Assembly (NCBI GenBank): GCA_016867375.1
Contig: VGJQ01000002.1
Location: 368-64,367, forward strand
Reading direction: 5' to 3'
Origin: Candidatus Kaiserbacteria bacterium
GTDB taxonomy: Bacteria; Patescibacteriota; Minisyncoccia; Phycocordibacterales; UBA2100
Length of the DNA: 64,000 nt
Shown: positions 19,306-19,755 of the stretch, piece after piece
Layout of the letters: the number at the start of each line of letters is the position of its first letter
Position numbering within the stretch: position 1 is the stretch's first letter
Position numbers and translations under genes: made by a program
The notes under the pieces: generated by a model
What the model was told of the DNA's origin: nothing
The model's database searches: none
What the model saw: the letters and a program-made list of their open reading frames with translations, nothing else

Positions 19306-19371
19306 CAGTTGGTACCCGCCCGAACGTACCGTTCGGTACGGGCGGGGAGCAACTCCAGGTAATCAGAAAGT
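19306..19371 (+). pseudogene. Duplicated 5' fragment of the downstream tRNA, interrupted in the D-loop by a 33-bp GC-rich palindrome (CCCGCCCG..CGGGCGGG)
   Basis: GCCGATGTAGCTCAGTTGGTA is identical to tRNA positions 1-21 at 19374, then the palindrome, then GAGCAACTCCA; no 3' half follows. Confidence 0.55.
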
Positions 19372-19373
19372 TA

Positions 19374-19655
19374 GCCGATGTAGCTCAGTTGGTAGAGCAA
19401 CTCCATGGTGGATCGCAGCAATCCCGCCCACTGGATCGGTAACGATGCAGTGAATCCCGAATAACGGTTAAAGACCTTGCATAGGTTCAGACCGTAGCGC
19501 TCAAAAAGCGCTCGAACGACTGACAAGGGCCAGGTAAGATGGCGGCAACGCTTATCTCACGTGGAAGATACAGTCTAGCCCTCCCGAATAATGCAATAGA
19601 GAAGGGGAGGTGGAAGCGAAGGAGTAGGTCTCCGGTTCAAATCCGGACATCGGCT
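19374..19655 (+). tRNA. Intron-containing tRNA, probably tRNA-Thr(GGU). 5' exon 19374-19409, ~209-nt intron 19410-19618 in the anticodon loop, 3' exon 19619-19655
   Basis: Exons give acceptor GCCGATG/CATCGGC, D-arm GCTC-AGTTGGTA-GAGC, anticodon stem ACTCC/GGAGT, T-arm TCCGG-TTCAAAT-CCGGA. The 5' exon ends in U and the intron ends in G. The intron has group-I-like R/S elements (GTTCAGACCG.., AAGATACAGTCTAG) and a P7-like GACTG/CAGTC pairing. Confidence 0.6.
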
Positions 19656-19682
19656 CAAGCGGGTATACCCGTGTACGTGTAG

Positions 19683-19755
19683 GCCGACTTAGCTCAGCTG
19701 GTAGAGCAACCGCTTCGTAAGCGGTAGGTCCGGAGTTCGAATCTCCGAGTCGGCT
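19683..19755 (+). tRNA. tRNA-Thr (anticodon CGU)
   Basis: Acceptor GCCGACT/AGTCGGC, anticodon stem ACCGC/GCGGT with loop TTCGTAA, T-arm CGGAG-TTCGAAT-CTCCG. Confidence 0.85.

Follow-up and report, generated by a model that had tools for sequence, protein, structure and literature searches.

A group-I-type intron in a Candidatus Kaiserbacteria tRNA-Thr(GGU) gene and the partial gene copy that precedes it

Introduction

A stretch of 64,000 nucleotides (nt) of a Candidatus Kaiserbacteria genome (assembly GCA_016867375.1, contig VGJQ01000002.1, positions 368 to 64,367), hereafter called the window, contains two adjacent genes for threonine transfer RNA (tRNA). One of them, tRNA-Thr(CGU), is uninterrupted. 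The other, tRNA-Thr(GGU), is the subject of this work. Its two halves are separated by what appears to be a compact group I intron, and upstream of it lies a partial copy of its own 5' half that is itself interrupted by a GC-rich palindrome.

The split tRNA-Thr(GGU) gene

19374-19409, + strand: exon 1 of tRNA-Thr(GGU), tRNA positions 1-36, 36 nt, ending in U36 (ARAGORN; orthologue in contig L004)
19410-19618, + strand: predicted group I intron, 209 nt, without an open reading frame (ORF) (minimum free energy (MFE) fold, covariation, family model)
19619-19655, + strand: exon 2 of tRNA-Thr(GGU), tRNA positions 37-73, 37 nt; CCA not encoded
19683-19757, + strand: uninterrupted tRNA-Thr(CGU), the neighbouring gene (ARAGORN, Rfam)

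When joined, the two exons give a 73-nt tRNA with a canonical cloverleaf, which ARAGORN calls tRNA-Thr(ggt). Default runs of ARAGORN and Rfam report a tRNA-Leu and the tRNA-Thr(CGU) only. With introns allowed, ARAGORN does report a split gene with a 209-nt intron, but it sets the junction at 34/35 and calls the product Arg(gcg). The same exons had been proposed in an initial annotation, which had noted that the 5' exon ends in U and the intron ends in G. Both bases are present in the sequence, and the junction is placed at U36 and the intron-final G because this is the sole register that meets both group I splice-site rules.

The initial annotation had also suggested a search among relatives for an intronless allele, and one exists. 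In contig L004, likewise from Candidatus Kaiserbacteria, the syntenic gene (12028-12100) is uninterrupted, and its loop reads ACTCC-ATGGTAA-GGAGT, which is the predicted ligation product. The spliced window tRNA is identical to the L004 gene at 67 of 73 positions; the differences are compensatory and fall in the acceptor and T stems. In the closest relative, contig L003, the gene is interrupted by a 194-nt intron that is 80% identical to that of the window, and the two introns differ by compensatory changes in the paired segments (P) P1 (G1:C16 to A1:U16) and P5 (A-U to G-C). The pair of tRNA-Thr(GGU) and tRNA-Thr(CGU) genes recurs in L003, in L004 and at many metagenomic loci. These sequence comparisons support the view that tRNA-Thr(GGU) is split at 36/37 by a group-I-type intron.

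Fold of the intron

19407-19411/19424-19428: P1, GGU/GG with CCGCC; U19409.G19426 wobble
19429-19452: P2, with loop (L) L2 GUAA at 19438-19441
19456-19458/19527-19529: P3, 3 base pairs (bp), pseudoknotted
19464-19469/19490-19495: P4
19474-19477/19483-19486: P5
19496-19500/19508-19512: P6
19518-19522/19571-19575: P7, GACTG/CAGTC
19530-19564: P8, with L8 GCAA
19565-19570: joining segment (J) J8/7
19580-19610: P9
19618: omega-G

An unconstrained MFE fold of 19400-19628 recovers the anticodon stem, P1, P2 and P4-P9 (z = -3.6), and the pseudoknotted P3 is the only intron helix missing from it. Ribozyme helices fill the 209 nt; there is no homing endonuclease gene or other ORF within the intron, and only short antisense ORFs overlap the region. 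The intron has an A-rich J4/5, and its J8/7-P7' block, AAGAUACAGUCU, matches the consensus AAGAUAUAGUCU of the Rfam group I model RF00028 at 11 of 12 positions.

The initial annotation had recognized the S block and the GACTG/CAGTC pairing of P7 correctly, and both are invariant in 112 homologues. The sequence that it had taken for the R block, GTTCAGACCG, is instead the 3' strand of P5 together with J5/4 and P4'. The equivalent of R is CGAACGACUGACAAGG (CGAACGACTGACAAGG at 19513-19528).

The intron family and its covariation

A combined pattern of the tRNA D-arm and the P7/J7-3 core matched at least 120 metagenomic contigs. The family counts given below (122, 114, 112 and 103 loci or introns) are among the matches listed from this pattern, and the 122-locus set comprises the listed metagenomic loci, the window and L003. 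Of the 122 loci, 120 have an exon 1 with terminal GGT, an intron with terminal G and an exon 2 that opens with AA or AG; the final G is present in all 120 resolved members. The 112 distinct introns, which form alignment A1, are 169-256 nt long (median 195). A length of 209 nt, initially regarded as short for group I, is therefore ordinary for the family.

The helix model is borne out by A1, in which 95.2% of the modelled pairs are standard, as against 29-45% after the 3' partners are slid. Double-sided changes affect 27 pairs and amount to 799 cells, compared with 244 +/- 17 in shuffled alignments, and the observed values were not attained in any of 500 shuffles. Covariation within the tRNA set is seen in P1, P2, P5, P6 and P9. 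P3 (CCC/GGG), P4 and P7 (GACUG/CAGUC) are invariant there, and P3, P4 and P6 covary among the phage relatives described below. The 5' splice site retains its U.G wobble in 111 of 112 homologues, with covarying pairs on the intron side of P1 (AU44/GU43/GC18/UA5 and GC63/AU33). Of the 55 columns that are invariant in A1, the window intron retains all, and its pairing with the exon is intact.

Variation in L2 is coupled to the form of P8. GAAA loops go with an 11-nt-receptor-like motif, CUAAG...UAUG, in P8 in 34 of 51 introns, and GYAA loops, the GUAA of the window among them, go with a plain short P8, the receptor motif being present in 1 of 35 (p = 4e-10 against GAAA). This co-occurrence is the covariation signature of a tetraloop-receptor tertiary contact.

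A covariance model, R1, was made from 40 family members, with the window and its two nearest relatives left out. Within the 64-kb window R1 has a single match, at 19452-19577, with 100.2 bits and E = 5e-25. A weak match (18.9 bits, E = 0.006) occurs at 5764-5881 of L011, a Kaiserbacteria contig whose tRNA-Thr(GGU) gene is intronless.

One further pairing emerges from A1. The L1 triplet CGC (19414-19416) covaries with the last three bases of the intron, GCG (19616-19618), which include omega-G. The pair counts are CG68/UG10, GC57/AU9/GU6 and CG44/UA14/UG5, with 23 double-change cells against 8.1 +/- 2.1 in shuffled alignments and 80% of pairs formed against 23-52% after sliding. The triplets may form a helix that sequesters or positions omega-G, distinct from a standard P9.0 or P10. 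A canonical P10 was considered and rejected, since the AAGG of the 3' exon is unable to pair with the 5' side of the guide.

Relation to known group I introns

Three Patescibacteria genomes (GCA_001029635.1, GCA_016700375.1 and GCA_030583745.1) are described as carrying a tRNA-Thr(GGU) intron at 36/37 (Nakagawa et al. 2026 mSystems, PMC13011429). Those introns are 'not detected' by RF00028, are miscalled by ARAGORN as Arg(GCG) with a 34/35 junction, and were recovered only with the dedicated model of tFind; they are placed with IA, on a separate long branch (PMC13011429). The name 'divergent group I introns' is that of Castelle et al. 2018 (Nat Rev Microbiol), as taken up in PMC13011429. The window intron agrees with them in phylum, host tRNA, anticodon and site, in a size and predicted fold that resemble those of canonical group I introns, and in its invisibility to RF00028 and its miscall by ARAGORN. 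It comes from another, Kaiserbacteria-like species, and the likeness is to the published description. The window locus also has an upstream exon copy; PMC13011429 makes no mention of such copies. By its sequence features, the window intron is a new member of this already published divergent family of Patescibacteria tRNA-Thr(GGU) introns.

Two other kinds of tRNA intron serve for comparison. The tRNA-Ile(CAU) gene of Azoarcus and the tRNA-Arg(CCU) gene of Agrobacterium reportedly contain group I introns of subgroup IC3. The window intron is similar to these in its insertion after U36 just 3' of the anticodon, its size of about 200 nt, the lack of an ORF, a GNRA L2 that contacts a helix or receptor, and the help of the anticodon stem in exon alignment. 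In contrast, the Azoarcus and Agrobacterium introns are detected by RF00028, P3 of the window intron has only 3 bp, and the sequences are unrelated beyond the universal core. The introns in the genes for tRNA-Asn and for tRNA-Asp of Patescibacteria share with the window intron the phylum and the anticodon-loop location, and are likewise of group I and mostly ORF-less. They differ in that they lie at site 35/36 of other host tRNAs and are detectable by RF00028. Self-splicing in vitro is reported for that class (PMC13011429).

The family also has relatives outside tRNA genes. The core ACGACTGACAAGG...GATACAGTC is present in 20 phage contigs of IMG/VR (L083-L102), and the family model scores 36-95 bits on all 20. 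The elements interrupt genes for ribonucleotide reductase (RNR), the alpha subunit of DNA polymerase III and tail proteins. L094 and L101 have three copies each (in L094 at 6317-6428, 6785-6896 and 7608-7710), and L088 has one at 4446-4561. RF00028 does not detect any of these phage elements, and in L088 a separate, canonical group I intron lies 540 nt downstream. In contrast to the window intron, the phage introns have protein-coding hosts, differ in P5, P6 and P9, and in some cases adjoin GIY-YIG or LAGLIDADG-like ORFs. Since the phage contigs match the tRNA-Thr model, the divergent family is common to phages and to tRNA genes of the candidate phyla radiation (CPR). A blastn search against the INPHARED phage collection matched only the neighbouring tRNA-Thr(CGU).

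Assignment to group I and proposed splicing pathway

The intron is assigned to group I on several lines of evidence. It has the U.G pair in P1, omega-G, the P3/P7 pseudoknot, the A-rich J4/5 and the J8/7-P7' block; the same core interrupts phage genes, where its removal from the RNA is required; and the published divergent introns behave identically towards RF00028 and ARAGORN. The initial proposal of a group-I-type intron is supported by the intronless allele, the covariation, the family model and the literature.

Several points weigh against this assignment or against activity of the intron. Rfam scans of 601 nt and 221 nt give no RF00028 match on the intron, whether the gathering score or E <= 10 is the cut-off. 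P3 is limited to 3 bp, and a P10 helix could not be drawn convincingly. The in vitro self-splicing work covers only the Asn and Asp introns at 35/36 (PMC13011429). It is conceivable that the window copy needs a protein cofactor or is inactive. As to RF00028, the initial annotation had named a lack of group I or group II covariance-model scores among the grounds for rejecting the intron. The Rfam group I model is indeed silent, and the group II models give only a 9-bit match to group-II-D1D4, judged to be noise. Rejection on RF00028 alone is too strict, as the family is documented to escape that model.

The silence of RF00028 might also be taken to mean that the split gene has become a dead pseudogene, or that the insert is not a ribozyme but a protein-dependent or novel type of intron. 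This is hardly tenable for a copy that has kept every family-invariant position and its exon pairing, shows compensatory changes throughout and comes within one position of the RF00028 consensus in J8/7-P7', and whose homologous cores in phage RNR, DNA polymerase III alpha and tail genes must be spliced out.

Very probably, then, the tRNA-Thr(GGU) precursor is split between U36 and A37 by a compact, ORF-less group I ribozyme, and the 80 nt upstream of the gene are a disabled partial duplicate, not a footprint of mobility. Splicing would follow the standard two-step, guanosine-initiated self-splicing pathway. The last three bases of the exon, GGU, would pair with the internal guide GCC to form P1, with the U.G wobble at the splice site. 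An exogenous guanosine bound in P7 would cleave after U36; the terminal G19618 would then enter the G site, and the exons would be ligated. The exons would be held chiefly by the anticodon stem of the tRNA and not by P10, an alignment that is said to operate in other tRNA introns. RNase P and CCA addition would complete the tRNA.

The upstream pseudo-exon and its palindrome

19234-19262, + strand: predicted promoter-like site, TTAAAA, 17-nt spacer, TATTAT, extended -10 TG (consensus scan)
19264-19289, + strand: leader hairpin, CACCCTC...GAGGGTG (RNA fold; a hairpin lies at the equivalent place in L003)
19294-19314, + strand: pseudo-exon part 1, exact copy of tRNA positions 1-21 (direct repeat)
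19315-19346, + strand: GC-rich imperfect palindrome, 32 nt, CCCGCCCG...CGGGCGGG, between A21 and G22, without target duplication
19347-19362, + strand: pseudo-exon part 2, GAGCAACTCCAGGT (19347-19360), equal to positions 22-36 minus T33, followed by AA

The two parts together make a full copy of exon 1, identical at 35 of 36 positions, in which T33 is absent and a hairpin occupies the D-loop. The AA that follows agrees with the anticodon loop in its spliced or intronless form. The copy had been perceived only in part: an exact duplicate of the first 21 nt does exist, but it lies at 19294-19314 and does not start at 19306; the palindrome beside it measures 32 nt and not 33 bp; and the resumption of the copy past the palindrome (19347-19360) had been missed. 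Only 11 nt (19363-19373) separate the pseudo-exon from the real gene. The palindrome is a single copy in the window and has no occurrence in 100 shuffles.

The promoter-like site, with its conserved block caatatgNtattatcc, the hairpin and the intron all recur in L003, but the pseudo-exon is absent there. Since the promoter-like site lies upstream of the pseudo-exon, the latter is probably part of a transcribed leader. It would be unable to give a working tRNA because U33 is missing and the D-loop carries a 32-nt insert, and the P1 that it could form would have 3 bp, compared with at least 5 bp at the real site. The upstream 80 nt are not part of the ribozyme.

As to its origin, the pseudo-exon is most likely the product of a duplication local to the gene's 5' side, accompanied by inverted-repeat formation, a process that recurs on the 5' side of CPR tRNA genes. 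The hairpin probably arose by inverted duplication of nearby sequence; part of the D-loop beside it reappears in its arms (GTTGGTAC / GTTCGGTAC). Insertion at a GTAA microhomology is possible.

A simple tandem duplication of exon 1 with its flank was considered and rejected: on inspection, the sequence that follows the copy (13 nt, AATCAGAAAGTTA) agrees in no register with the start of the intron or with a duplicated leader.

Partial tRNA copies are reportedly found at the att sites of integrative elements. The window copy resembles them in being a direct, same-strand partial duplicate beside an intact tRNA gene. Copies at att sites are usually 3' fragments with a whole integrase-bearing island in between, whereas the fragments considered here come from the 5' part, lie 70-340 nt upstream and have no intervening element. 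An att-site scar is rejected because no integrase island lies between copy and gene, which are only 11 nt apart.

Recurrence of 5' tRNA fragments

Fragments were scored as matches to the first 13 nt of a gene, with at most one mismatch, outside any called tRNA. By this measure 14 of 114 family loci (~12%) have an exon-1 fragment upstream on the same strand, and no opposite-strand or downstream fragment is found at these loci. A local-alignment version of the search gives 12/103 against 0/103. The positive loci are scattered: of 30 intron clusters, at least 11 include one.

The fragments are of two types. In one, a complete 36-nt copy of exon 1 runs on into GGTAA, then a degenerate stretch and AGGTC, in some cases with remnants of a T-arm (L208), typically 150-170 nt upstream of the gene; such a fragment is a decayed intronless Thr(GGU) gene. 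In the other, the D-arm or D-loop contains a GC-rich hairpin insert. The CCCGCCCG...CGGGCGGG palindrome of L174 resembles that of the window and is placed after A9 and likewise at GTA^G. Palindromes ending in CCCGCC...GGCGGG lie within 5' tRNA fragments in L174 and L222, in the latter at the Thr(CGU) gene. Presence and layout differ between close relatives: L003 and L134 lack the fragment, and L111 differs from L173 and L126 from L147.

Intronless tRNA genes of CPR contigs also have such fragments, upstream and on the same strand, in 9 of 263 cases (~3%), with 0 or 1 in three control positions. Examples at Thr(CGU), Phe, Gly, Val, Ala and Tyr genes consist of the first 13-24 nt of the tRNA, often with a GC hairpin in the D-loop position, and lie 70-290 nt upstream (L113, L148, L022, L222, L010/L024, L061, L036, L050 and L209). 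In L148 (3117-3331) there are three 68-nt tandem units. On these sequence counts, upstream fragments occur generally at CPR tRNA loci; they are commoner at the intron-bearing gene but not specific to it. We found no literature on tRNA pseudogenes or fragments in Patescibacteria.

Three observations argue against neutrality of the copies. Fragments are ~3.6-4 times commoner at the intron-bearing gene (14/114 against 9/263; p = 0.002-0.004). In several lineages the 36-nt exon-1 copy and a tail of 12-23 nt are far better conserved than the surrounding spacer. In L113, near-identical pairs of hairpins lie upstream of two neighbouring Thr genes, Thr(CGU) and Thr(GGU), and each fragment matches the acceptor stem of its own gene. 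The conservation of the tails and the tracking of the acceptor would require gene conversion or selection rather than simple decay, and confidence in the neutrality of the pseudo-exon is therefore only moderate.

Alternative origins and roles of the pseudo-exon

The initial annotation had read the upstream duplicate as a scar of intron mobility or recombination. In such a scenario an intron-bearing allele, or a complementary DNA of the spliced tRNA, would have integrated through one homologous and one illegitimate junction and left the resident intronless 5' half behind. The run of the pseudo-exon into ...GGT-AA, as at an intronless junction, would fit, although two matching bases are weak evidence, and so would the upstream copies at other loci that clearly derive from an intronless Thr(GGU) gene (GGTAA, AGGTC and the T-arm remnant of L208), the enrichment at the intron-bearing gene (p = 0.002) and the constant upstream, same-strand position. 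But the intron has neither a homing endonuclease gene nor any other ORF, the 11 nt between copy and gene leave no room for a donor leader, and the same architecture, GC hairpin included, precedes Thr(CGU), Phe, Gly, Val, Ala and Tyr genes that have no intron. A mobility scar is quite unlikely on this evidence. A different proposal concerns the palindrome alone, which might be a small mobile palindromic element (REP or PATE-like, inserted as single-stranded DNA in the manner of IS200/IS605) that entered an existing pseudo-exon. The insertion is precise and without target duplication, and the window (GGTA|GAGC) and L174 (TGTA|GCTC) share both the GTA^G site and the ends of the palindrome. Such an element would nevertheless be present once in 64 kb, with no transposase nearby; related loci totalling 2.26 Mb contain only 9 similar palindromes, the majority terminator-like and 3 of the 9 inside 5' tRNA fragments, and the arms that partly repeat the D-loop fit a local inverted duplication. 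We regard it as unlikely.

The pseudo-exon could instead act in the RNA as a mimic of exon 1, either as a leader that pairs with the 3' half of the tRNA or with the guide and in this way affects folding, splicing or processing by RNase P, or as a decoy for the excised ribozyme, or, where the 36-nt copy is intact, as an alternative 5' exon. Its location downstream of a conserved promoter-like site is compatible with this, as are the conserved copy blocks and tails amid unalignable spacer, the fragments of L113 that follow the acceptor sequence of their own gene, and the retention of the CCAUGGU target of P1 in intact copies. A functional element would hardly be expected to turn over so fast among close relatives (L003 and L134; L111/L173; L126/L147) or to be confined to ~12% of family loci, and the window copy itself, without U33, with its 32-nt insert and with the shorter P1, could give no working tRNA. 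A role of this kind is unlikely, and the disabled local duplicate remains the preferred reading for the window. Taken over all loci, the recurrent 5' copies (the first 13-36 nt, usually with a GC hairpin) might be something other than junk, namely an undescribed leader element, a mimic of exon 1 or of the acceptor that co-evolves with its tRNA and influences precursor folding, group I splicing or RNase P processing or decoys the excised ribozyme, or the product of an undescribed duplication mechanism targeted to the 5' side of tRNA genes; we give this a small, though not negligible, chance.

Implications

A tRNA-Thr(GGU) gene of this kind is missed by default ARAGORN and Rfam and mis-assigned to Arg(GCG) once introns are allowed; genomes that carry it would therefore seem to lack a Thr isoacceptor and score as less complete. 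The family, so far described from three genomes, extends to more than 120 environmental loci and is linked to phage introns. To its description are added a secondary structure backed by covariation, the L2-P8 tertiary contact and a possible pairing of L1 with the last three bases, including omega-G. The recurrence of pseudo-exons poses a small, testable puzzle on the evolution of tRNA loci in reduced genomes. Modest new leads come from the recurrence of 5' pseudo-exons, the phage-intron link and the covariation of L1 with omega-G.

Other features of the window

The window is a chromosome segment of a Patescibacteria (CPR) bacterium, and the genes near the locus are those for Nramp, NUDIX, release factor 2 (RF2), FtsE/X and CTP synthase. 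The Nramp protein is 81% identical to a protein from a metagenome-assembled genome of Candidatus Kaiserbacteria, and further matches are nearly all from CPR genomes.

Between the NUDIX gene and the tRNA promoter, at 19098-19227, lie three nested or adjacent perfect inverted repeats: one of 12 bp at 19122-19150, one of 14 bp at 19196-19227 and an outer 12-bp pair at 19098-19186. In exact-protein look-ups for samples spanning the locus, Logan contigs end at ~19124 and resume at 19682, so the pseudo-exon and the intron are not covered by them; the contigs of two samples stop at ~19124, within the inverted-repeat region.

An RF2-like ORF (20584-21486; PCRF and RF-1 domains) begins at position 86 of the PCRF profile, which leaves its N-terminal part unaccounted for, and the RF2 frameshift motif CTTTGAC, sought upstream of this ORF (prfB), is not present. 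At 33795-40751 (+ strand) a single ORF of 2318 amino acids, which combines Big_5 and CarboxypepD_reg repeats with a peptidoglycan-binding domain, explains a stretch of 6 kb with a GC content of 0.63, compared with ~0.53 in the rest of the window.

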